Shown one piece after another: positions 4,361-49,728 of a stretch of 64,000 bases of DNA (its first letter is position 1; each line of letters starts with the position of its first letter). Source of the DNA: a virus (taxonomy: Duplodnaviria; Caudoviricetes); the IMG/VR virus record IMGVR_UViG_3300025000_000055; one strand, given 5' to 3'. Below the pieces are notes generated by a model. The model saw nothing but the letters and a program-made list of their open reading frames with translations, had not been told where the DNA came from and made no database searches. A program made the translations under genes and the position numbers.

Positions 4361-6202
4361 TTGCCTGCAATCGGACAAATCATTCCTAAATATACACATC
4401 CTCATTCCGAAACATATATAAATGATAATACTATATTTGAGGAAATAGTTTCCGAACCAGAAAGTGGTGTGCGTTTTATTAACGTATTCACCTCGTCCAA
4501 AGGACGAGATGGTGTTGTTTTAAAAAAAACAAAACACACTGATTTTATTGAAGAATATGGTAATCCAAATTATAAACTATTTGCTCAACCCGGTTATATG
4601 CCATATGCAGCATTAAAAACGTTTCAGGCTGAATGTCATTGCATGAGAGTGATGCCGGATGATGCATCTTATTCTAATGCTATAATTATAGCTAAGATTA
4701 AAGTTGATACGACTGTGGTTGGTAGTCCTAAATTACTTATTAGACACCAATCTGTATTTCTTACAAACTTTACAGATAAGACTGAATTTTCAGTTAATGT
4801 TGAGTTATTAAAAGATACTGACCCGGATGAAGATGGATGGTTAACATTTCCTTTATTCGGTGCATATGTGTTGGGTAGAGGTATTTATGGTGACACAACA
4901 AGACTAAGACTGAGTGCATCACCACAAGCTGATTTAGAAAATGGATATAAAAATTATCGTTTTGAGGTTCTTGATAGTGAAGGTGGATTAACACGTAAAG
5001 AACTTTTTACTGGTAGTTTATATACTGATGCTATTATTAGTTCAAATACTCTTTATATTGAGGAATTAATCAATGACTCTGACGGTAGTACTAAAATTGG
5101 TTTTTATGTATCTGAAAATTCTCTTAATGAAATTCTTACTATTTATAATGAACAAGTTGCAGATGAAGATGCTCAATTAACATTACAAACATTTGATATT
5201 ATTACAGCTCGTAGTATGATAGCCACTACTTTAACTGATATTGTGATTTCAAATACTGCCAGCGATGTTTCTTTAGATAGAGTTGAGGGTATTTTATTTT
5301 CTGGTGGAAACGATGGTTCCTTTTCAGTTAGTGGTGATGCTGGTGTAAGAGAAACGGCTATTGATACTGCTTACATCAAAGCATTCACGGAAGATAAAGT
5401 TCTTTTAAGTAAGAGAAGAACTCCGGCAGATTTAATTCTTGATGCAGGTTATTCTGATGATGTTAAACGTGCTCTTATCAGTTTTATTACTAATAGATAT
5501 GATGCATATGGTTTTATTGATGGTGGTATACTTGAAACACCATCTGATGCTATCACATGGGCTGAATCTATGACATCTTTAGCAGATAGAGTATTTTCTA
5601 AAGAATGTAACCATTACTATATAAAAGATCCATTTTCTGGTAAATCTATACCTATGACGATAACATATTTCTATGCCGGACAGTTACCACTTCACTTTAA
5701 AACTAATGGAAACAACACTCCATTTCAAGGTGAAACATATGCTAAACTTACTGGCTTTGTTAAGAATTCTTTGAAACCAATTATTGATGCTGACGATAAT
5801 GATATTAAAGAAACGCTTTATAATCTTAGAGTAAATTATTTTGAGTGTATTGCAGAAAATACATTTATAAGGGGGGTTCAAGGCACATCGCAAAATGTTT
5901 GGTCTGATTTATCAGAAGAACACAACATGCATGTGCTATTGGAACTAAAAAGAAAAGTTGAGGCGTTAGTCGCATCAAAATCATATAATTTTGCTGAAAA
6001 AGAAGACAGGATTGAATTTACAGAAACAGCTGAACGTATTTTTGGACCATATCGTGGGAAAAAAGTAAGAGAAATTTCAGTGTATTTTGATATGAGTCCA
6101 TTTGAAGAAGAAAGAAGTATTTTACATTGTTACATGGAGATTATATATAAGACAATAGCTAAGCGGGGCATTATTGAAATTGATATTAATAAACGTGTTT
6201 AA
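4361..6202 (+). CDS. Contractile tail sheath protein
   Basis: About 613 aa. GGNDG motif and a sheath-like C-terminal domain (LYNLRVNYF...LSEEHNMHVLLELKR...IIEIDINKRV). Followed by the tube gene. TTG 4361 chosen as start from AAGGAGG spacing (ORF track starts at 4352). Confidence 0.85.
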   Translation: MPAIGQIIPKYTHPHSETYINDNTIFEEIVSEPESGVRFINVFTSSKGRDGVVLKKTKHTDFIEEYGNPNYKLFAQPGYMPYAALKTFQAECHCMRVMPDDASYSNAIIIAKIKVDTTVVGSPKLLIRHQSVFLTNFTDKTEFSVNVELLKDTDPDEDGWLTFPLFGAYVLGRGIYGDTTRLRLSASPQADLENGYKNYRFEVLDSEGGLTRKELFTGSLYTDAIISSNTLYIEELINDSDGSTKIGFYVSENSLNEILTIYNEQVADEDAQLTLQTFDIITARSMIATTLTDIVISNTASDVSLDRVEGILFSGGNDGSFSVSGDAGVRETAIDTAYIKAFTEDKVLLSKRRTPADLILDAGYSDDVKRALISFITNRYDAYGFIDGGILETPSDAITWAESMTSLADRVFSKECNHYYIKDPFSGKSIPMTITYFYAGQLPLHFKTNGNNTPFQGETYAKLTGFVKNSLKPIIDADDNDIKETLYNLRVNYFECIAENTFIRGVQGTSQNVWSDLSEEHNMHVLLELKRKVEALVASKSYNFAEKEDRIEFTETAERIFGPYRGKKVREISVYFDMSPFEEERSILHCYMEIIYKTIAKRGIIEIDINKRV

Positions 6203-7102: not shown

Positions 7103-9729
7103 TTATTGTTCAGTTGAACTATCATCAGGATTTTCTGTTAAAATTTTCTGATATTCTAATTTAGCATCTTCTACAGCTGTATCAAACATCCTCCAAGGTA
7201 ACATTGGTAAAATTTCTCTAGTTGCCTTATTCATAATTAAATCTTTAATTTTATTATCCTTATCTGTTGGAGAAGCATTTTCTCCCGATACTATTTTAAG
7301 CATAAATGCTAGCAATTGATCTGCATTTGAAATTAAATCACTCATATTCATAGTATTTAGTGCTTTAGGTAAATTTAAACTATATACAAATGTTTCAATT
7401 ATTTCTTTAGGTATTTCTGTACCAGAAAATTTCATTATTTTTTTATAGAATTCAGTTATATTAGGGTTAAAATCAAGTTGATCACTTACAACTCTCCCTG
7501 TAAATTTGGCATTAGCCATGACAAGAGTCTTTGCATACGGTATATTCACATAGGTCGTTAATCTATGCAGTTCTCTTATGAACTTCCCTAACTTTCATTA
7601 GGATACTAGACTATATCTTCATCTTTTATTAAGTTAATTAATCCTAATAAAAGAGCTCTCCATTTCGATTTAAGGGATTTTCACCCACCTACTTAGGCCC
7701 TACTCCTATTGATCATTTCAGATCCAAAGGGATAGTCGTTGAACTTTATTCCTTATTATATAAGGAATCTTAGCTGCGGATCACCTAATCTTAAACATTA
7801 TTACCTTACTCAGGTTAATTACTCCTGACCACTATATCATTGCTAATATAGTTTGGTAGTTTAAGATTTAAAGACTTCCCCGACAATTAAAAGAGAATTG
7901 GTATTATAGATCACTCTATAACCTGACTAATAATTATCAGCTTCATTGATATAATTCATTATTACAGATGGGACACCAGTACCATTAATGTAAGATGTTT
8001 TTAACATCTCCATTAAATCAGTATTTAATTGTATATCCTGACCTGCCAATATATCAAACTCTATTCCTTTTTCACCAGTTCTACCTACAGGTACAAAAAC
8101 ACCTTTAGCATGACCAATTTTAGATACCATTGTATTATAATTTAATAAATCCATAAAATTTATATCTCTTTCTTTAAGAGTTCTAGCTACATCTTGTAAT
8201 TTATTAATAATATTTGTATCTATACCAGAATTTTTAATATAATTAATTCTAGTATCGTTAGATTTACTAATAATAGAAACCATCTTAAATATTAAAAGAG
8301 CTAAATATAATTTAGCATAAAATAATGACTTCATTAGTATACTAGTTCCTTCACCATCTTCATTTTCATTAACAGTGAATTCAGTTATATAATCAACTGG
8401 TATAAATTGAAATTTTATTTTCTTTTTATATAGTTCATTATAAGATAAGCAATTGAATATTAATTCTTTAAATTTAATATTTTCTTCTAAGTATTTTTTA
8501 TTAAATGATTTAACGATTTTTTCAGTTAGTTTAGTTAAAAACATATTTTCAAGTTCGGGTGTATTAAGATTAACAGTATTAATTCGTATTGTATTAATAA
8601 ATGGGGATTTACTAATAGGTGAAGCTTCATGTATATAATAGTATCCTATAACATGATCCATTATTTTAACAGGTATGATCTTTTTAGGACTAATTAATTT
8701 AATAAAACAATCCGTTATATTATCAAAATTATTAGTCTTATCTTTTTCTGTAGATATAGTTGCATCATTAAAAAATGTTGAAAATGAATTAGTTTTATTT
8801 TTAGATTTATTACTATTTTTAATAGCATCTTCAACATCTTTTTTAAATTTTTCATCAGTAATAAGTTCCGATACATCAACACCTTCTAGTATAGGTATAT
8901 GTACAATATCATTTTCGACTTCAATATCTTTAACTAAATCTTTTATTTCTTTTTTTAATATTGAGGAAACCGATTTAATTTGCCCGTCATCTTTTAATTC
9001 TCTTATAAAATTATCATCAATATTTTCAGTTATAGAAATTGTTTTTAATTCTCTTACCTTTTTATCATAGAAATTTTCAAATAATTTTGAATAAGGTACA
9101 GTGTAAACATAATATTTACCGTATTGAAGAGTTTTCGGTATAATATGATTTTTCAATTTACTTGATAATTTAAATTTAGTCTCTAAATTTTCTATTAATG
9201 ATATATAACTCTGTTTATCTTCTTCACTACAATTAGAACTTTTAAATTGTAAATTTCTTGATATAGATTGAGTAACATCATCAGCTGTTACTATCGCATC
9301 TCTAGTTGCATTAACAGCTTCTTCTAGCTCAAATAGATGACTACAAATTAAATCAAGGTCTTCATACAAAAGATTTTGATTTCTATATCTTTCATTAAAA
9401 AATTGAAATACAGCATTGTCTTCTGATGAAAATATATCTTCAATTTTTTTTATATTTGAAAATTGTTGACTCTCATAATCATTAAATAGTTTTACTAGAA
9501 AAGTTGATATGTCATCTCCACCAAAATCAGTTAATTTTTTTATCTCCTGAAAAATAACATCATCAACCTGATCTGATAATTTTTTAATTTCTTTCTCTCT
9601 TTTAGTATCACTTGCATTAGTATTAAAAGAAATTTTATCCAATACATCATTAAATAAAGCATTTAATTTTATCAACGGTCTTTCTATTTTTTTAACAATT
9701 ACTCTTTTAGTTTGTTTCTCAGCACTCAT
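7103..9729 (-). CDS. Portal protein, spliced (exons 9729-7936 and 7537-7103)
   Basis: Removing intron B joins ...NYINEAD|YAKTLVMANAKF... in frame (about 742 aa). Size, GVPSV motif and position near the head/tail genes fit a jumbo-phage portal. Confidence 0.7.
7538..7935 (-). mobile_element. Group I intron B (398 nt, no ORF)
   Basis: P (AATTGTCGGGAAG), Q (GATCCGCAGC), R (GTTCAACGACTA) and S (AAGATATAGTCT) elements. P1 is CTGAT|...GTCAG with a U.G pair. Terminal G at 7538. Confidence 0.92.
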
Positions 9730-10438: not shown

Positions 10439-12910
10439 TTACACTATAATTTTATTAACATAATAATTATTAACATCATTAATATCAATAATTAGTTTCT
10501 TGTTCTTTTTAATATTTAACTTTTCTTTTATAACAGAATCTATTTCTTCTAATTTGGGAAGATTAAAAAAATCATGACCTAAACTATTTAAATCACCTAT
10601 TAACATATTATCTATAAAGATTTTACCTATATCTTCTTTTTTATCTTTATCATCAATATCTTCAATATAATTTGGCAATTCCTTATTATTTTCTATAATT
10701 AATTTACCGATCATGGAATTAGGTTCAATATTAAAACAAATAATAATACTTGGATACATACTGGAAAACGTAATATTCACATAGATCGTTATTCTATGCA
10801 GTTCTCTTATGAACTTCCTTAGCTTTCACTAAGATACTAGACTATATCTTCATCCATTATATAATCGGTATAATGGAGCCTCCTATTTCGATTTAAGGGA
10901 TTTTCACCCACCTACTTAGGCCCTACTCCTAATGACCATTTCAGATCCAAAGGGATAGTCGTTGAACTTTATTCCTATAACTAGGAATCTTAGCTGCGGA
11001 TTACTCAATCTTTTTATTATAAATAAAAAGCTCTAAGAGCTTCCCCGACAATTAAAGAAGTTATTCAACATACATTACTATATGAGGGAACAAATTCATC
11101 CATATCAATAACATTGTCAAATATAAATTGACTTTTTTTACCTAAAATTTCAATACCAACATGAGAATTTAATAATGGGTTGGCAACTAAAGCTCCTGCA
11201 AATTTTTCATCTTCATCATCTTCGTTATTCTTGATTGTTTCTACACCATACTGAATATTAATGTTATTAGCTATTATTAACCCTTGCTTATAAAATTCTA
11301 TATATGCACGATTTTTTAAAAACGTTAAGTTCACATAGATCATTAGTCTATGCAGTTCTCTTATGAACTTCCCTAAGCTTTCCTTAGGATACCAGACTAT
11401 ATCATCATCTCATAGAGATGCTTCCTATTTCGATTTAAGGGATTCTCACCCACCTACTTAGGCCCTACTCCTAATGACCATTTCAGATCCAAAGGGATAG
11501 TCGTTGAACTTTATTCCTATAACTAGGAATCTTAGCTGCGGATTACTCAATCTTTTTATTATAAATAAAAAGCTCTAAGAGCTTCCCCGACAATTAAAGA
11601 AGTTTACAATACATATTACTATGTAAAGGGTCTAATTATTAAACCGTTTGTCTAAATACTTTTTTATAAGTTGTAGCATTAGTATATGAACGTTGATATA
11701 CATTATCAATATCATTAACTTTTCTTTCAATACCTAATTGAAGTAAGACGTCTTTAATATTATACATAACAAATTTTTTATAATTTCTATATGGTAAAGT
11801 TTTAATATTACCATCTTCACTATAATCTAATTTAGTATCACTAATTTCTTTTTCTGCAACATAAGTAAGAGCATTAGAACGTAATTCCGAAGCTCCTTTT
11901 CTTAAAGCACTGTATACTATCATTTGATCTAAAAAAACTGTATAAGATGATATTTTAAAATAATCACCTTTATTTGCTACTTTAAAATTTCTCATATCTT
12001 TTACAAACATTAATTCTTTTATATTAAAATCAGGATGACACATTATTTCTTTTGGATCTAAATTTAACTCTTTCATACGAGCTATTAAATATGGGACATC
12101 AAATCCGATATTCCAAATCATTAAGAAATCACGTTTAAGAGTATTTATTAATTTAAATGTATCTATCAACATTTCACTTTCATCTTCATACATATAAATA
12201 TTATATTTTAATACCCCATATGATTCATCAAATACTTTATGAAGCTCTTCTACAAAATTATCTATATCTTTTTTAAACTTTTCTATTTGAGGATTATTTT
12301 CATTTTCTAAAAGAAAAGTAAAACATGTGTTACTAGTTTCATCAATTAAAGTAATTGCATTAACTGGACATTCACCATCTTTAGGAAATCCAATTACTTC
12401 TATTGAATCAACTTCAATATCAAGATATGTCTTAGTTATAGGTTTAGGTTTATCATTATGATAATTTAATAACCATTGTATTCTATACCAATTTTCAATA
12501 TTATAATCTGAACCAAATACATATCTATATTTATGCAAATTATTAATAGCATACCTATTTCTAGTTTCCAACTTTTGTTTAATATAAGTTAAATATTCTT
12601 CACCTGCTTGTTTAGCTATATAAAAAGGTAAATCTTTATATTTAGTTCGGTGACACTCAGTTTCACTTAAAGGACTAAATGATTTATTATGTTGAAAATT
12701 TCTAAATTCTTCTTTTGTAAAATAAATATCCATCTCAGGTTCATCTATAGTTAATATGTGTTTTTCACCAGTATTTAAATCTTTATAAATAATATCGAGA
12801 CTATCTTTATACTTTCTTTCTTTATTAGGAAAATGGTAAATTGTTTCTAAAAACATTATGTTATCACTTTTCATCTTTCCAAGAAACTTCATTCTATAAA
12901 TCACCACCAA
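10439..12910 (-). CDS. Family B DNA polymerase, N-terminal subunit of a split enzyme, spliced (exons 12910-11642, 11322-11098, 10768-10439)
   Basis: Exonuclease motifs YLDIEVD, WNIGFDVPY and YNIKDV. Splicing restores RQTV|FLKNR and motif A VIDMD|FSSMYPSII. The product (about 607 aa) ends without motifs B and C. Confidence 0.9.
10769..11097 (-). mobile_element. Group I intron C (329 nt, no ORF) in DNA polymerase motif A
   Basis: Family P/Q/R/S core and tail GTGAATATTACG. Excision restores DMDFSSMYPS. Confidence 0.92.
11323..11641 (-). mobile_element. Group I intron D (319 nt, no ORF) in DNA polymerase
   Basis: Family core, P1 GGTT|...GACC, tail GTGAACTTAACG. The join is in frame. Confidence 0.92.
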
Positions 12911-29695: not shown

Positions 29696-32600
29696 TTAAA
29701 TATCTTCTTCTATACCATTCATTTTAATTTTAATATAAAAAAGATTTGTATTTTCATTCTCTTTCCTTTTAACTTGGAATTTATTATTAATTTCTCTTAT
29801 AGTATTAATTCTATCTAAATATTCTTCTTCATTATCATAGTCAATTGAAACAAAACAACTATTAGGTTCATCTTCCTTACAATATTTAAATAAATCTTTC
29901 TCAAATAAACATTTAAAACTTTCTGGTTCTCTTGAATCATCAAAGAATAAACCATGAGTTTTACAAAAAGGAGTTATAATACCACTAGTGCCTGGATCTG
30001 TTATGTTCACATAGGTCGTTAATCTATGCAGTTCTCTTAAGAACTTCCCTAAGATTTCCCTAGGATACCAGACTATATCATTAACCTAAATTTATTAGGT
30101 TACTTCCCACTTCGATTTAAGGGATTCTCACCCACCTACTTAGGCCCTACTCCTATTGCTTATTTCAAAGCCAAAAGGGATAGTCGTTGAACTTTATTGT
30201 TATAATTAATAAGTGTAATCTTTTGATATGTGTACCCATGAAGTTCTTTTTCTTAAATGTTTAACCAAACCCCTATAAGATTCATTTTGTTTTTTGTCTT
30301 TAACTATCATATTCATCTCCTTTCTTATCTCATATTCAGAATAACCTTTTTCTAATAAAATACATATCCCACGAATTAATGTTTCTGAATATTTATTACA
30401 TCCATGTCTTTCACCTTTAACTGGTTTTTGTAACCCTTCTCTCCATGAATGATCAATATTTTCTTTAGGAGTACTCCATTCTAAATTTTTATAAAAATTA
30501 TTAGTTTTATTAGTATCTTTATGATTTATATGAATATATTTTTCATTAAAAAACACTTTTAATGGTAGAAAATAATATCCGACTAATCTATGTATATAAA
30601 ATTTTCTTTGTTTTTTGTATCCTTTTAGCGTACATCTTAAATAACCATCCTTATCAGTAAAAGGACTTAAAAATCTACCAGTTAATTTATTTCTAACCTT
30701 ACCATAATTACTAATTTCGTATATATTTTTAACATTATATTCTATAATATCTTTCCATTCTTCTTCATGGGGTTTAATAAATATTATCATTTAATACACA
30801 CCTCTTAACATATAACAATCTTAGCTGCGGATTACTCAATCCTAAAACCTTGTTACCATACCTTAGTTGATTAGACTAAGCCACTATATTGTTTCCGATA
30901 TAGTTTGGTAGTTTTAGGCTATAAGAGATTTCCCGACAATTAAAGAAGTTTTCATCATAAGTTACCCTATAATGCTCCAATCCAGTAGAGTTACCGCATA
31001 CGTTAATATCGAGCTTCCCAATGTAAGATGGATGAATATCACGATATTTTTTTGATATCCTATTGTCATTCTTACCACCCAAACTATTCGGACCTTTAAT
31101 AGTATATCTTAGTTTACTAAAAAAATCCATATCATTTATTTTATCCGTTGTGTTCACATTACTCGTCAAATAATGCAGTTCTCTTATGAACTTCCCTAAG
31201 TTTCCCTAGGATACCAGACTATATCTTCATCCTTAATTAAGTTAATTACTCTCATTTAAGGAGCTCCCCGTTTTAACTCACCATTATAGACTTGTGAGAT
31301 TACTCTACTTCATATGTTAATTTCTATAACATATTTTTCGATAGTCTTTGAACTTTCACCTTTATATAATTTTTTCCAAGATCTCCCTGATTTGATATTA
31401 CTCATTAAAGTATAAAGATTTCTAATTTCCCTTTTTGATAAATTATTTAAACCTAGTTTATCAATTATCTTTTTATGTTTTAATCCTTGTTTCATAAACT
31501 TAATTATATTTCTTATTAATTCTTCATCATATCTTTTTTGTTTACATTTATTCAAATCAATATTTTCGGTTAAATAAATTCGTGTTCTTTTAGCTCTTAA
31601 ATCATTTATAAATGTACGTATATTTTTTTTATTTTCTAAATTTAATTCATAAATTATAATATCAGTACTTTTATTTTCTTGTAATAAAGATACTATTTGT
31701 TTAGATAATTTATCCGAGAATTTACTTAAAGGATGTTTTTCTCCAATAGGTTTATTTCCTTCCTTATATGAATACGCAATATTTTCTTTCTGAGTACATT
31801 TTTCTAAAAGATCTAATTTATTAAATTTATTTATACTATCTTTATGATGAATTATCATTGATTTATCAGATATATTAAAATCTGACATAAAATAATAAGC
31901 TAATAATCTATGAATTAAAAAATTTCTAAATTTACCATCTATACATGATAATTGAATATATTCGTATTCTTTAGTATTTTTAGAATTTTTTAAAATCCTA
32001 TTAAATTTATCATTTCTAATAAATCCATCAGAATTTATAGAATAATTCTTTTTAACTTGGGGCAAATCTATTTTTACCCAATCTTCTTTTTTCATATCTT
32101 TCTCTTTTCTTTATATAATTTTTATTTTTCTTGGAAAATATATCTTTATAAAGGTTATTAGCTGCGGATTGTCCAATCCTTACTGTTATTACTATACCAG
32201 GTTAATTACTCCTGCCACTATAATATCACTATTATAGATTAGTAAGTAAGGCCCTAAGGAGTTCCCCGACAATTAAAGAAGATTCTTTACAATATTACTA
32301 CTGTAAAGGACAGTATCTATCAAATCTTAATAATCCTGAATCATGTAAATTCTGAATTAGCATATCTCCAGGAAATTTAAATATTTCTTCAATATTTTCT
32401 AAAGTCATTTTTTTACCTAAACTAATAACTCTATTCATTCTTTTACTAAATGCTTTAGTTAATAAAGAAGCAATATATTCATTACATCTTAATCTTTTAT
32501 TATCTATAGACATATTATCTTTCTTTCTTAATTCATCAAAATTTTGAATCATCCATCTGATAACAGAATAAACATTCTTTCGATGTTCATAATCTATCTT

Positions 32601-38828: not shown

Positions 38829-41715
38829 TCATACTTTAATATCAATAACGAACATTTCTTCTTTAATTCTTCGTCTCTCAACTTCTTCATCTAAAAGTTT
38901 TTCGAAATCTTTTGTAGTACCAACAAATACTTTATTTTCCTTATATTCATTAATAATGTCTATTCGTCTTTTAATATCTTTAAATTCTTCATTATTACTT
39001 ATAAAGAATTTTCCATCATAAAATTTACCTTCAAGAAACCCAGTATTAATATCTATATCAAATAATTCATTATTAAATTCAATTTTTAAACCCATAGATT
39101 TCAAAAAGGCTCCTAATATTTCAATATTTCTATTTTTAAAATTTGGTTTATATTTAAAATCTTTTATAGGGTTTAATCTTGTCATTAAATTTTCACCTAA
39201 ATTACGTCTACCTATAACAGATGACCTATAAAATAAATGTAGTTGAGCTATTAGTTCAGTTGGAACACCTATATTAGTATTAAGATTTTCATCAATACCA
39301 ATTCTTATAGGAGTCTTAGAATATAATTCCTGATGAGTTTTAGCCTTATTAGATTTTTCAGGTAAACCTTTTCTAGATAAAGTTCCAGTTGATCTAGCTG
39401 AAAAACCTTTCTTAGCTGTTTGCATTAATTTCATTACATACATATCACCAACTACTAACTTTTTCATCATTTTAATTTTCCTACCAAATCTATTTGTATA
39501 AACATCATATTGTTCAATCCAATCATGTTCTTCATATAATTGAATAAGTTTATCAAATAAAAATTCTTCTTCCCATAAAGGAGGTATATGAATAAATACA
39601 CCTTCTTCAACTAAATTATTAAAAAATTCTTCTTTACTAATAACACTTAATCTCTTTAAATATTGTCTTAATTTTTCTTCTTGGTCTTTATTAAAATAAC
39701 TTATTATATTAAGAAATAAATCTTCCTTTTCTTTTATGTCAGTCATTGTTTGAATACGTTCTACAGTTCTATTACAAATAAAAGTAATTGATTGTTCAAA
39801 AAGCTGGTATGAGTTTACAATTGTTTTAGACCATATCTTCATCTCAAATGAGATGCCTCCCGTTTCGGGTTTCCCCTACTCTACTTACTTCTTCAGTTAT
39901 AAGTAAATTATAACCTATGCTTTCGATGGTCGTTGAGCATATTTCAAATATTAATATTTGAAACTTCGCTGCGGATTATTCAATCTTAAACCTTTTTACC
40001 ATACCTGAGTAATTACTTCAGCCCTTATCTATATGTCACCATGATAAGTTGGTAGATTAAGATTAGCGAACTTTCCCGCAATTAGAGAGGTTTTAAATCG
40101 CCTAAACCTTACCAGTCCAGCGATTGATCACAGATAAACTGTTAAACAGAAGGTCTACACGTTCTCCAGTTTCTAAAAATGGCATCTCATCATCAGGTAA
40201 TATCTTTGATATAACACCTTTGTTACCATATCTCGTTGTATTCACATAGAACGTTAATCTATGCAGTTCTCTCATGAACTTCCCTAGTTTTCACTAAGAT
40301 ACTAGACTATATCATTAACCTAAATAAATTAGGTTACTTCCTATTTCGATTTAAGGGATTCTCACCCACCTACTTAGGCCCTACTCCTATTGTACATTGC
40401 AGTACCTAAGGGATAGTCGTTGAACTTTATTCCTTATATAAGGAATCTTAGCTGCGGATTACTCAATCTTTTAATAATATAAATATTATTAAAAGCTCTA
40501 AGAGCCTCCCCGACAATTAAAGAAGTTTTCTATATATGTCACCACATATAGGGGCTAAGCTATGTAACCCGTTACTTTCTGACCCACTTCTAAATAGGCA
40601 TCTTTTTCAACTAAAAATTCTATTACTATATTGGAAAATACTGAGTTATTTTCTTCTCTCCATTTATATTTTTCGTCTAATATATTTTTTGCTTTTCTCA
40701 TATAAAAACTTATTTCTCTAGAATATTTAGAACCAGAATCAATTATCTGTTTACATCTTTTAAATATTCTTTCATAATAAACTAATTGCATTTTATAATA
40801 TTTCATTATCTGTCTATTAAAATCATTCTCTTCCAATTCATCTAAAGTTTTATTACAATATATATCTATATCAATAATTTTACCTTTACCTTCAATAAAG
40901 AATAATACATCAGAAGTAAAATCAATCTTTCTAAGATTAGATTTCTTTAAATCATATAATAATTGATTATTATGAATTCTCCTCTTAGCACAAATTATTT
41001 TATCCTTAACATATTCGTTTATATCAGGAAATGTCTTATAATTATTACCATTCCCATATATATTACAAAAGATATCATTATCATTTAATGAAACTTTAAC
41101 TCTCTCAACTTCTGTTGAAACCATTCTTCTTGATAATGATTCTGAACATACAATAGCATCTTCAATAGTATTATTCTCTAAAAGATACATAAACTTAACA
41201 TTAGCACCATAACAATAATTCATATCTTCATCATAAGAAGAACTCTTATAAAGAACTTCTCCTTTATATATTGAAGTCCCAACTTCTTTATTATCAATAT
41301 TATCAGTATTATATTTGAAACCATATCTTTCTGTTAAATCTTCAACGTTTTTCTTTTCTATAATATCATATTGGTCATTTTCTTTATCATATATGAATAA
41401 TAAATATATTTGTTCTTCATTTTCACCATCTGTAAACTTACTAATTTTATCAATAATAACACAATCATTTTTAACTTTTTTATAACCAGTTGAATTCTTA
41501 CCAACTATATTTTCATAATTAGTAAAAATTCTTGGAAATTCGGGATTATTTAGAGTAACACATTGCTTCAAGTGAGCTGTAAACATAATATTTCTTGATG
41601 AACTAATATAACCTGGATTTGTTAAAAGAGTCATCCCAAATATATCATCTTTACCTTTAAACTCCTTTTCTTTTTCTTGTAATATTTCTTTCAATGACAT
41701 TGTAGTTTTATACAA
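38829..41715 (-). CDS. rpoB: Multisubunit RNA polymerase beta-like subunit, C-terminal part (probably non-virion RNAP), spliced (exons 41715-40567, 40233-40119, 39817-38829)
   Basis: Splicing restores GQKVTG|[11 protein letters not shown]...MPF...SVINR(T|TA=L)NSYQLFE, equivalent to the RpoB GDKxxGRHGNKG and SRMN motifs. EDAIV and [17 protein letters not shown] are also present. About 750 aa. Confidence 0.9.
39818..40118 (-). mobile_element. Group I intron H (301 nt, divergent, lacks P9)
   Basis: P AATTGCGGGAA, Q AATCCGCAGC, P7 GACCA/TGGTC. 7-bp P1 AATCGCT|...GGCGATT and 6-bp P10 GGTTTA/TAAACT. Confidence 0.88.
40234..40566 (-). mobile_element. Group I intron G (333 nt, no ORF)
   Basis: Family core, P1 GGGT|...GCCC, tail GTGAATACAACG. 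Excision restores TG|RYGNKG. Confidence 0.92.
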
Positions 41716-41806: not shown

Positions 41807-43763
41807 TTATATAGCTTTTTGAAATTGTTTTTCTTGTGATTTTTCTAACCTATCACATAATTCAAAAATATTTAATAATTGACCATTTTCTTCTGGTTCA
41901 ACATGCGATAGTTGTTTTTCTAATATAGGTAATGACCTATTAAATAATTCGTATCTTAATTTTTCATTAGTAAGAAATTCTTTTCTAAATTTTCTACTAT
42001 CAAATTTAATATCTTTTACACCTTCAATATATTTATAAGGATTACGACCAGCAATTAATTCATTATCTTCAGCAAATCTTAGTTGAGTTAAAATAGGGTC
42101 AAAACCAGTGGATTGGTCATAAATAAGATTTACAAATTGACCAGCTTTATTTGTTCTAGATTTTAGAAACTCAGCTCTTACACCAAATCCATCAAAACCA
42201 TTTTCTTCTTTCTTAAATTTTTCTGAACCTAAAGCTATAAAATTAACTAATAAATTAGCATAATAGATCGATTTATTCACATTGGTTGTCAGTCAATGCA
42301 GTTCTCTTATGAACTTCCCTAATTTTCATTAGGATACTAGACTATATCTTCATCCTTAATAAATTTTATTAAGGAGTTACCCATTTCGTAAAGAACTCTG
42401 AAAAGTTCACCTCACCATTATTGACTTGTGAGTCTACTCCTACTTTACTTTTATTAAAAGTAACGTCATCAGATAGTCGTTGAACTTTATTCCTTATTAA
42501 TTAATTAAGGAATCTTAGCTGCGGATTACTCAATCTTTTTATTATATAATAAAAAGCTCTAAGAGCTTCCCCGACAATTAAAGTAATGCTAACATAATAT
42601 TACTATTATGCCACCCTAAATTTAGGTGCATTCCCACCCGTTAAGTTCACATAGTTCGTCAAACTATGCAGTTCTCTTATGAACTTCCCTAAGCTTTCCT
42701 TAGGATACCAGACTATATCATTAACCTAATAAGAATTATTAGGTTACTTCCTATTTCGATTTAAGGGAATTTCACCCACCTACTTAGGCCCTACTCCTAT
42801 TGATCATTTCAGATCCAATGGGATAGTCGTTGAACTTTATTCCTTATTAATTAATAATAAGGAATCTTAGCTGCGGATTACTCAATCTCTTAATAATATT
42901 AATGTATTAAAAGCTCTAAGAGCTTCCCCGACAATTAAAGAAGTTATTCAACATACATTACTGTATGAGGCCCCACAAATCTCGAGTTTAGGGATACTCT
43001 GATCCATCTTCATATATAATAATTGTGGTTGCGTTTTATGCATAGGGTTAATTTCAATTTTTTGATTAATATGATTTATAGCAATAACATTTATGTTATA
43101 GGCTTTTATAATTGGCATTAGTCTCTTATAAAATTGGGCCAAAGCTTTAGCAACTCTGTTAGCATAAGTCCCACCTTCCATTTCATTAGAAGCATCTTTT
43201 GAAGCAACAGTTGGAATTGAATCTATAATCATAACTGTTGGAACAAAGGTTTTAATGGGTCTATTAAATTCATCAACTAATCCTGTATCATAAGTATAAT
43301 CTTTTCTATTAACTTCTTTCTCTTGAGCTATTTCAACTATACTATTAAATATATCTTCAATATAATTTTTTTCTTGTTTCAATAAATATTTATCATCAAG
43401 TTCTTGCTGAGTCATAGATGTTACATTTTTTATTCTGGTATAAGATAATACTTGTTCTAAGTCGTAATGTTGAACAAATGCATTATCAACAAATTTTCTA
43501 ACAATATTGGCTGCAATTTGAATAGCAAAAGTAGTTTTAGCAGTACCAGCCTTACCTATAATTGTCATAAACGTACCACCAACTATACCAATAGAAGAAT
43601 AAGTAGTTATAAGTTTCTCATCTAAATCTCTAACTTCCACCATATACCCATTTCTATAATCAAATGGTACAAAACCTGTTGGATAACAAATGGATGTTTG
43701 TGTTGGACTAAATAAACCCTTTTTATCTTTTTCTCTTAATCTTGAGAGCATTTTATTAGCCAT
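41807..43763 (-). CDS. recA: RecA/UvsX-like recombinase, spliced (exons 43763-42990, 42638-42624, 42268-41807)
   Basis: Walker A GKAGTAKT, Walker B MIIDSI and INHI motifs. Splicing gives DQSIP|GGNAP|IYYAN, equivalent to RecA L2 TTPGGNALKFYA. About 416 aa. Confidence 0.9.
42269..42623 (-). mobile_element. Group I intron J (355 nt, no ORF)
   Basis: P1 CACCT|...GGGTG, P/Q/R/S elements, tail GTGAATAAATCG. Confidence 0.9.
42639..42989 (-). mobile_element. Group I intron I (351 nt, no ORF)
   Basis: P1 CCCT|...GGGG, family core, tail GTGAACTTAACG. Confidence 0.92.
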
Positions 43764-48018: not shown

Positions 48019-49728
48019 TTATTTTAAAGATTTTTTAACTAGTAAACCCTTTGTAACTAAGTCACTATTTATACCCATACTCGTCAAATGCACATCAATT
48101 AAATTTAATGTTACTTTATTTTCAACATTATTAGTCAAACTATTTAGAGAAACAAATCCTTTTTGTGCTATAGATGCATACATTTCATTCTTCATAACCA
48201 TATCATCGGCTCTCGGCGATAAGTTCATATTGTTCGTTAGACAATACAGTTCTCTTATGAACTTCCCTAGGGTTTCCCTAGGATACCAGACTATATCACT
48301 AACCTAAAAATATTAGGTTACTTCCTATTTCGATTTAAGGGATTCTCACCCACTCACTTGAGCCCTACTCCTATTGCTTATTTCAAAGCCTAAAGGGATA
48401 GTCGTTGAACTTTATTCTTATTTTTTAATCATAATTTTATATTTTTTCGAAATATGACCCCATTTACCATATTTTATACCATCTATTAAACTATAAAAAC
48501 TATTATTGTTCTTTCTTTTTTTATAACCATATATATGCATTATTTGCATTTGAGTAAGCCCCTTCTCAAGATATTCGCATATTTCAGTAACTAACGCTTC
48601 TGAATATTTAGCATAATAATTTAAACTACCATTACAACCAAATCTACTTTTACCATGAATTAAACTAAAGTCATTATTTTCTTTAGTTGTAACCCATTCA
48701 AGATTTTCGTAATAATTATTAAATGAACATGTATCTTTATGATTCACATTGATTATACATTGTTCTTTATTATAACCATTAATAAATTCCCAAGCAACAA
48801 GTCTATGTATTGCAACATTTTTAATTTCTTTATTTTCACCCATTAATCTTAAATGTAAATATCCTTTTTTATCATGAAAACATTTTAAAAATCTATCAGT
48901 TTTTATATTTTTTATTTTACCATAGTTACTTATTAAATAAGTATTCTTTTTAATAGATGGATATGTAATATTTCGAAAAATTTCTTTATCTTTTTTAATA
49001 ACTATATACATTTTTTATCATCCTTTTAAAATAAATTAAAAAAATGTATAATAAGATATTAAAAAATAATATAACTTATAAATAAGAATCTTAGCTGCGG
49101 ATTACTCAATCTTTTTATTTATATAAATAAAAAGCTCTAAGAGCTTCCCCGACAATTAAAGAAGTTTTCTATATATGTTACCAATATATAGGGGCTAAGC
49201 TATGTAACCCATTAGCTCTCTTAGTGCATCATTGGCTCCAACAGATAATAATGAAAAGTTTTCTTGATCTGATTCTCTAGCGTTTTTATCTTCACCAACG
49301 ACCTGACCAGTCATTGCAGAACGACTTGAACTTTTTGTTGATAAAGTATTTTTTTTACTCAATAATTGTTGCATTCTTTTAATATGAACATAACCAACAG
49401 GTACTTCGTATTTAGTAACAACGGGATTATCAATATTATTATTAACAAAAGGTACTACTATTTTTTCGAATAAAGGTATATCTAATACTTTAGCCGCTTT
49501 TTCTATATTGTCAATATTTAAATCTCTCTCATAATCAACCATATCTAAAATAAGATATTGGTCATCATCTTTAAAAAATTCTTTAAAAAAAATATCGAAT
49601 TGTTTATCACTCATTGGTTGAAATAGTTCTTTATATTTTTTAGTGTTTATACTTGTTGGGTCTAAAGCATCAAACGTATCATAAATTAGTTTTTCCATCT
49701 TTTTTCTTTTATTTTTAATAAGATTCAT
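48019..49728 (-). CDS. C-terminal fragment of an RNAP beta-like subunit (probably virion RNAP), spliced (exons 49728-49207, 48216-48019)
   Basis: VPVGYVHIKRMQQ...RSAMTGQVVGEDKNARESDQE resembles the RpoB C-terminus. Splicing joins LRELMG|PRADD (about 239 aa). Late motif at 49760-49771. Confidence 0.72.
48217..49206 (-). mobile_element. Group I intron K (990 nt) with an HNH ORF
   Basis: P1 GGGT|...GCCC, family core, tail ATGAACTTATCG. Confidence 0.9.
48418..49011 (-). CDS. Intron-encoded NUMOD4-HNH homing endonuclease
   Basis: YLISNYGK, IHRLVA and VNHKDTCSFNNYYENLEWVTTKEN motifs, located in the P6 loop. Confidence 0.88.
   Translation of the reverse strand: MYIVIKKDKEIFRNITYPSIKKNTYLISNYGKIKNIKTDRFLKCFHDKKGYLHLRLMGENKEIKNVAIHRLVAWEFINGYNKEQCIINVNHKDTCSFNNYYENLEWVTTKENNDFSLIHGKSRFGCNGSLNYYAKYSEALVTEICEYLEKGLTQMQIMHIYGYKKRKNNNSFYSLIDGIKYGKWGHISKKYKIMIKK

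Follow-up and report, generated by a model that had tools for sequence, protein, structure and literature searches.

Can a stretch of only 15 nt between two group I introns be an exon in its own right, and what would it contribute to the encoded protein? The question is raised by a gene for a UvsX/RecA-like recombinase in the IMG/VR virus record IMGVR_UViG_3300025000_000055, a 64,000-nt stretch of DNA (hereafter the window) from an uncultured groundwater giant phage, an AR9/PBS1-like jumbo phage. The gene lies on the minus strand. Exon 1 (43763-42990) has a good ribosome-binding site and 258 codons, ending in QSIP with the last codon CCT. It is followed by intron I (42989-42639; 351 nt), by the micro-exon GGTGGGAATGCACCT (42638-42624; 15 nt), whose codons GGT GGG AAT GCA CCT read GGNAP, by intron J (42623-42269; 355 nt) and by exon 3 (42268-41807), which starts with IYYAN (ATC TAT TAT GCT AAT) and comprises 153 codons and a stop codon (41807-41809). 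Both introns belong to group I and contain no open reading frame (ORF): intron I follows U42990, starts with AAACTCGAG and ends in AACG with omega-G42639, while intron J follows U42624, starts with AAATTTAGGG and ends in AATCG with omega-G42269. These coordinates, the GGNAP translation and the CCT-AAA junction at both 5' splice sites had been proposed in an earlier reading of the letters (the sequence-only reading), and all of them agree with the minus strand.

We consider it likely that the locus contains two separate group I introns placed 15 nt apart in a UvsX/RecA-like gene, and that normal splicing retains the 15-nt exon.

Homologs of the micro-exon in intronless relatives

A scan of IMG/VR yielded 16 loci related to this gene, and a scan of metagenomes of the Joint Genome Institute (JGI) yielded 11 (L-numbers). 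In 13 intronless relatives, a comparison based on tblastn places exactly 15 nt between the codons homologous to SIP and those homologous to IYY. Two of them, L006 and L007 (79% identity at the amino acid level), read ATACCA-GGTGGAAATGCACCA-ATTTAC, corresponding to IP-GGNAP-IY, and the more distant L026 (64%) reads ATACCT-GGTGGTAATGCACCT-ATCTAT (L026:3293-3325). At the protein level, the intronless genes of the phages AR9, Madawaska and BpSp read ESIPGGTSCIYLAN, EALPGGKAINYMAN and ESIPGGGSAIYLAN, respectively; the spliced product of the window, QSIPGGNAPIYYAN, aligns to these three UvsX proteins without a gap, and the product of the spliced gene is also gap-free against T4 UvsX and Escherichia coli RecA. 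Such an exact spacing would not arise by chance, and it confirms the micro-exon as directly as sequence alone permits. Together with the Rfam scores given below, which lie above the threshold for both introns, it bears out the proposal of a 15-nt exon between two group I introns.

L026 represents an empty allele of both target sites (ATACCT-GG and GCACCT-AT), each with the U needed for insertion of a group I intron, while both sites read CCA in L006, the closest intronless relative.

Contigs of two groundwater runs were also mapped to the locus, and none of them joins exactly across either intron. Apparent joints in some contigs (42354 to about 42745-42755) were rejected as intron deletions, as they include foreign letters and result from matches to other members of the intron family. 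In the same two runs, the summed contig depth over the introns (42269-42994) is 10-30 times that of the flanking exons, and the recombinase gene occurs in at least two strain variants of comparable depth.

The recombinase and its Gly-Gly motif

The assignment of the gene to the RecA/UvsX family is based on profile matches and on the order of motifs. The UvsX-like recombinase profile PHROG 97 matches both exon 1 (E 8e-26) and exon 3 (E 1.4e-5), while the Pfam RecA match of exon 1 alone reaches 19.9 bits, which is under the cut-off of 27 bits. A profile built from the intronless relatives matches structures of RecA (3CMU), of UvsX (3IO5 and 9GBG) and of another recombinase (7Z3M). According to its translation, exon 1 contains the Walker A (GKAGTAKT) and Walker B (VMIIDS) motifs and most of loop L2; in the MAFFT alignment Walker A, Walker B and the INxI...GG region follow each other in the order seen in the family. 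The best cultured relatives found by tblastn are the UvsX-like genes of AR9, PBS1, BpSp and Staphylococcus jumbo phages (35-39% identity), and the gene order, with UvsX followed by the gene for the C-terminal part of the beta subunit of the non-virion RNA polymerase (RNAP), is that of AR9/PBS1-like phages. A megablast search of nearby DNA against phage records gave no match.

The MAFFT alignment contained the spliced product, seven metagenomic relatives, the proteins of AR9, Madawaska and BpSp, T4 UvsX and E. coli RecA, the last two taken from public records. In it GGNAP falls on GGNAL of RecA (G211-G212-N213-A214-L215 in the usual numbering) and on GGTGP of UvsX, so the earlier assignment of the micro-exon to the Gly-Gly motif after L2 holds. 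Loop L2 of RecA comprises residues 195-209, and G211 and G212 contact the DNA backbone in structure 3CMX, their equivalents in UvsX being G209 and G210 (PMC10144138). The micro-exon thus encodes the Gly-Gly pair immediately after L2, not L2 itself; the loop, which here is about 11 residues longer than that of RecA, is located in exon 1. Within the family, Gly at the second position of the motif and its Ala do not vary; Gly at the first position is found in six of the seven aligned relatives and is replaced by Cys in L008. Twelve of the 13 intronless relatives contain GG, the exception being the lineage of L008 and L025, which reads CG. In this lineage, which looks intact (72% amino acid identity), P-G-G-N-A-P is replaced by P-C-G-H-A-A (L008:4775-4789 and L025:3275-3289).

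A search of PDB with residues 215-330 of L006 retrieved expression-tag artefacts only, and an AlphaFold model of this intronless homolog, built from an alignment of seven rows, was set aside because its mean pLDDT was 55 and fell below 50 over residues 227-271.

Two complete group I introns

Both introns are recognized by the Rfam model RF00028, whose curated gathering score is 50: intron I scores 73.4 bits (42687-42999) and intron J 62.0 bits (42317-42634). In each case the 5' splice site follows a U that forms a U.G wobble with an internal guide. The guide of intron I, GGGG (42971-42974, minus strand), pairs with CCCU at the end of exon 1, the pair at the splice site being U.G. In intron J the guide, GGGUG (42612-42616, minus strand), pairs with CACCU, the last five bases of the micro-exon, this helix being extended by UGC/GCA with one bulged G. 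In L005, one of two sister phages with the same introns, exon 1 ends in ACCU and the guide of intron I reads GGGU, which is a compensatory change of C:G to A:U in P1 relative to CCCU/GGGG in the window. The 5' splice site of intron I is therefore pinned.

To compare the introns with each other, we aligned three copies of intron I, three copies of intron J and the intron in the portal gene of the window (7935-7538). Among the 63 pairs predicted by RNAalifold for these seven sequences, 23 show double (compensatory) changes, which are distributed over P3, P5, P6, P9 and P9.2, while GAUAUAGUC and GACUA, the sequences of J8/7 and P7, do not vary. The final CG of all seven sequences, introns I and J included, occupies one and the same column, which fixes the omega-G of intron I despite the GG that follows it; the frame is fixed by the protein alignment. 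In other members of the family the guides are retargeted at unrelated exons, with CUGAU/GUCAG in the portal gene and GGGU/GCCC in the RNAP genes, that is, with U.G and a P1 of 3-5 bp. Between the 5' strand of P7 and P3' the Rfam alignment shows an insert of 60-90 nt, at the place where introns of subgroup IA2, such as those of Twort and T4 td, would have the extra helices P7.1/P7.2.

Introns I and J are most probably IA-like introns of the self-splicing type, and neither has an endonuclease gene. A twintron, in which one intron lies within the other, was considered and rejected, since each intron has a complete P1-P9 core and the intervening 15 nt are coding.

Readthrough of unspliced RNA would be short in both cases. 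An in-frame TGA (42948-42950, minus strand) lies 13 codons into intron I, ends the ORF 42948..43763 and would halt ribosomes that read through the unspliced 5' splice site; an in-frame TAA (42606-42608, minus strand) lies five codons into intron J (CCT AAA TTT AGG GTG GCA TAA). In-frame stop codons soon after the 5' splice site are usual in phage introns.

A double role of the micro-exon

The micro-exon had been proposed to act both as the 3' exon of intron I and as the P1 strand of intron J, and this view is supported by its position and pairing: its first base directly follows the omega-G of intron I and its CACCU pairs with GGGUG. When folded by RNAfold, the micro-exon and the 5' end of intron J give -7.5 kcal/mol, the same value in all three genomes with twin introns. 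The omega-G of intron I followed by GGUG of the micro-exon also spells GGGUG, which is the guide of intron J, and the competing hairpin that this sequence could form with CACCU has -6.8 kcal/mol. Such a hairpin could couple the two splicing reactions; this modeled structure is a lead only.

The most probable history and function of the locus may be described as follows. Two introns of one genome-wide family would have inserted independently at sites 15 nt from each other, where the recombinase gene is most conserved. A short guide would direct each of them to its 5' splice site (CCCU/GGGG in intron I and CACCU/GGGUG in intron J), and each would end at the omega-G of the CG shared by the family. 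Normal splicing would take out both introns and retain the 15-nt exon. The product would be a full-length recombinase, in which GGNAP would provide the Gly-Gly contact to the DNA backbone after L2.

Conservation and selection in sister phages

The two sister phages, L004 and L005, have the same twin introns and an identical micro-exon, with 94% identity at the protein level and about 90% in exon DNA. Their introns are less similar to those of the window: the orthologs of intron I are 81-87% identical and those of intron J 86-91%. Relative to L004 and L005, the ratio of non-synonymous to synonymous substitution rates (dN/dS) is 0.05-0.07 for exon 1 and 0.04-0.06 for exon 3, the proportion of synonymous differences (pS) being 0.27-0.41. 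Hence both large exons are under strong purifying selection. This demonstrates that the gene is in use, that exon 3 is translated in frame and, therefore, that the message must be spliced.

The longest run identical in the window, L004 and L005 over the 2-kb locus is a block of 52 nt (42590-42641, minus strand), which extends from the last three nt of intron I (ACG) through the micro-exon to nucleotide 34 of intron J and includes P1 and P2 of the latter. The next longest run has 31 nt, and 78% of the columns of the three-way MAFFT alignment are invariant overall. The micro-exon and its flanks would be the most conserved 52 nt of the locus because they serve as coding sequence, as 3' exon of intron I and as P1 strand of intron J. 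The block fits such stacked constraints, imposed by the protein, by the 3' splice site of intron I and by P1 of intron J; recent gene conversion of the patch may be an alternative source of its invariance.

The introns of L005 (4775-5163 and 5179-5586) both have an extra hairpin of 40-50 nt in the P5 region, which is shared with the portal-gene intron of the window, and the four bases AAAC with which intron I begins in the window and in L004 are absent from that of L005. On the basis of these sequences, modules seem to have been exchanged between members of the intron family.

Splicing order, exon skipping and other explanations

Several points weigh against retention of the exon by two independently acting introns. 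The splice junctions were derived from DNA. We found no convincing P10 of intron I with the micro-exon, the best pairing being weak and not conserved in L004, and a convincing P10 of intron J with exon 3 was likewise sought and not found. Inclusion and skipping of the micro-exon are both in frame, so selection on exon 3 cannot separate them. The three genomes with twin introns all come from related groundwater samples and are few and not fully independent. With shared CCU 5' splice sites and near-identical 3' domains, either ribozyme could choose the splice site of the other, and published tandem systems of this type skip the exon (PMC10136302 and PMC11878797).

These points matter most for a programmed exon-skipping switch, which would yield two in-frame isoforms that differ in GGNAP, the one lacking it being a regulator or a dominant-negative subunit of the filament, in a ratio that shifts during infection. 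Skipping of the 15 nt does keep the frame (SIP-IYYAN), as the sequence-only reading had pointed out; this is correct, trivially so since 15 is a multiple of 3, and a length preserving the frame is expected by chance in one case in three. The two introns are related and have common CCU-AAA 5' splice sites and near-identical P9-P9.2 tails, and skipping has been reported for exons of 23 nt in Twort orf142 and of 34 nt in the Coxiella 23S rRNA (PMC10136302), as well as for about 47% of the transcripts of one SIOphi gene (PMC11878797). On the other hand, the guides of introns I and J are partly differentiated, with 4-5 bp for cognate and 3 bp for non-cognate pairing in the productive register, and P3 differs at two of its six pairs; such differentiation suppressed skipping in an engineered Tetrahymena tandem system (PMC10136302). 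RNAduplex energies of the guides with non-cognate exon ends were discarded as misleading, because the best duplexes did not keep the register set by the U.G wobble. In all three genomes AGAU in loop L1 of intron I is complementary to AUCU, with which exon 3 begins, but this helix of only 4 bp, with about -1.7 kcal/mol, is too weak to interpret, and P10 is absent in other family members. Furthermore, 12 of the 13 intronless relatives keep GG, none of the 13 gives any sign of a short form, and the layout is explained by a pile-up of introns at a conserved motif, where a third intron is found 4 nt upstream in L013. We therefore regard a programmed switch as very unlikely. That a substantial fraction of the transcripts, of varying size, lacks the exon, and that a recombinase lacking Gly-Gly co-assembles with the complete one and tunes or poisons recombination in infection, seems marginally less likely again; if true, this would be a ribozyme-driven switch of protein isoforms in a phage. 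By analogy with the published systems, skipping as a by-product is plausible, and we infer that it would be a by-product rather than a programme, with the exon included in the main product.

Obligatorily ordered splicing would follow if the GGGUG/CACCU hairpin hid the omega-G of intron I and the 5' splice site of intron J, the crowding of two cores on a 15-nt tether adding to the effect; the second reaction would then have to await completion of the first or a refolding of the RNA. The near-equal energies of this hairpin and of P1 of intron J (-6.8 vs -7.5 kcal/mol), the presence of the hairpin in the minimum free energy structure of a 100-nt context in two of the three genomes and the fact that the 52-nt invariant block spans all three strands involved are in line with this explanation, and the 1-nt exon of placozoans demonstrates that even so small an exon can be used sequentially (PMC5436844). 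Yet GGUG...CACC is largely dictated by the codons (GGN GGN ... GCN CCN) and also occurs in the intronless L006 and L026, and secondary-structure energies disregard the tertiary folding of the ribozymes. The sequence itself forces no order, because removal of either intron leaves P1 and the 3' splice site of the other unchanged. An obligatory order is thus improbable, though less so than the switch. Finally, the gene could be decaying, or intron I, micro-exon and intron J could always be excised as one piece, the micro-exon being a relic. Neither intron has an endonuclease gene, which would agree with decay, but dN/dS is about 0.05 on both sides, compensatory changes preserve the RNA structure, three genomes share one and the same micro-exon although 27-41% of their synonymous sites differ, and the constancy of its second Gly and Ala in the family, and of its first Gly in all aligned relatives except L008, speaks against a relic. 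Among all explanations considered this one is the hardest to credit.

Origin of the introns

A search by nhmmer with the family alignment found 13 matching segments and at least 11 intron copies in the window. Segments of the family are located at 35-241 on the plus strand and at 7538-7936, 10769-11088, 11323-11628, 30000-30213, 30807-30978, 31146-31366, 39827-40097, 40234-40542, 48217-48423 and 49074-49181 on the minus strand. The hallmarks of the family are a shared core and a shared 3' end, ...GUGAA(N4-5)CG. With its default filters Rfam detects only three copies of the family, and with laxer filters four, in part different ones.

Introns I and J belong to the same family and are 61-75% identical. 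In a pairwise comparison, intron I shares 80% identity with the portal-gene intron and 75% with intron J, while intron J and the portal-gene intron are 63% identical. A local tandem duplication of one intron was rejected, since intron I is nearer to the portal-gene intron than to its neighbor; two independent insertions from the genome-wide pool are therefore assumed.

A different group I intron is present in the recombinase gene of L013 (IMGVR_UViG_3300001528_000360; 61% amino acid identity), at L013:4766-6044. It contains an ORF of 293 amino acids of the HNH type (4973-5854) and sits 4 nt upstream of the site of intron I, inside the Leu codon preceding P-G-G. Its P1 of 8 bp (GAGUCCCU/GGGGACUC) is contiguous with a P10 of 6 bp (UCCAGG/CCUGGA), and the protein frame DESL-PGGTAP agrees with these pairings. 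The 3' splice site is therefore placed after ...CCUACA, and the intron apparently ends in A, not in G. Rfam detects only the 3' half of this intron (30 bits).

Across related phages there are thus three insertion points within 19 nt of the Gly-Gly motif, which is hence an intron hot spot. A pile-up at conserved sites is typical of mobile introns.

Comparison with known systems

The sequence-only reading compared the locus with the two introns of the Coxiella 23S rRNA gene. Its statement that the exon described here is shorter than the 34-nt exon of Coxiella is correct; the closest precedent is, however, orf142 of phage Twort. There, a 23-nt exon lies between two similar IA2 introns (I2 and I3) and is subject to skipping (Landthaler and Shub 1999, as described in PMC10136302 and PMC3073962). 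The two loci have in common a phage protein gene, two similar side-by-side group I introns, a very short exon and a mechanism by which it could be skipped, and the tandem of Twort type is recognizable here in two similar introns (61-75%, with shared 3' domains) flanking the 15-nt exon. They differ in the length of the exon (15 vs 23 nt), in the consequence of skipping, which keeps the frame here and shifts it in Twort, and in the sequence interrupted, a recombinase active-site motif here and a tail tube gene in Twort. The layout is of the same kind as that of the Twort introns I2 and I3, the differences being the shorter exon, its in-frame length and a catalytic-site motif as cargo.

In Coxiella burnetii the introns Cbu.L1917 and Cbu.L1951 of the 23S rRNA also flank a short exon that is skipped, but this exon (Hicks et al. 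2011, as cited in PMC10136302) is 34 nt long and non-coding (rRNA), the introns belong to the subgroups IB2 and IA3, and the host is a bacterium, not a phage. For the Bastillevirinae phages phiNIT1 (large subunit of the ribonucleotide reductase, rNDP reductase) and SIOphi, PMC11878797 describes cDNA with a small exon between two group I introns. This resembles our locus in the small exon and in the choice of a core gene of DNA metabolism, the phage lineage and the genes being different. The kind of evidence also differs: these cases are supported by cDNA, and splicing and skipping in Twort by RT-PCR, while the present locus is known from DNA.

In the mitochondrial cox1 gene of placozoans, an exon of 1 nt lies between group IB introns, and half-spliced intermediates are known (PMC5436844). 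As in the recombinase gene, a micro-exon between group I introns supplies an indispensable conserved residue, although the placozoan exon is shorter, the genome is organellar and the introns belong to group IB. A length of 15 nt is thus far from the lower limit for group I introns, and it is shorter than the exon sizes that we found in the literature on bacteria and phages (23 and 34 nt).

Group I introns in RecA-family genes are known from recA of the Bacillus cereus group and of the B. thuringiensis phage 0305phi8-36 (PMC2504315). Like introns I and J, they follow a U and usually have no endonuclease gene, but they are single introns at one site of a bacterial-type RecA, without a micro-exon. 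In a tblastn search with E. coli RecA for the site of the 0305phi8-36 intron, this phage was not among the 60 matches listed. The AR9/PBS1-like phages (Takahashivirus; Madawaska) share the UvsX-RNAP gene order with the window, and the RNAP gene of Madawaska has annotated introns, but, in contrast to the gene described here, their UvsX genes are intronless.

Gene callers would report the recombinase as two fragments, losing five key codons. The locus illustrates how densely selfish group I introns can accumulate in the most conserved codons of a gene essential to the phage while the gene survives. Its precursor RNA, which combines a pair of related ribozymes that have diverged from each other, an in-frame exon of 15 nt and a competing hairpin, is also a small natural model of how adjacent ribozymes select their own splice sites and of how skipping of an exon is prevented or exploited.

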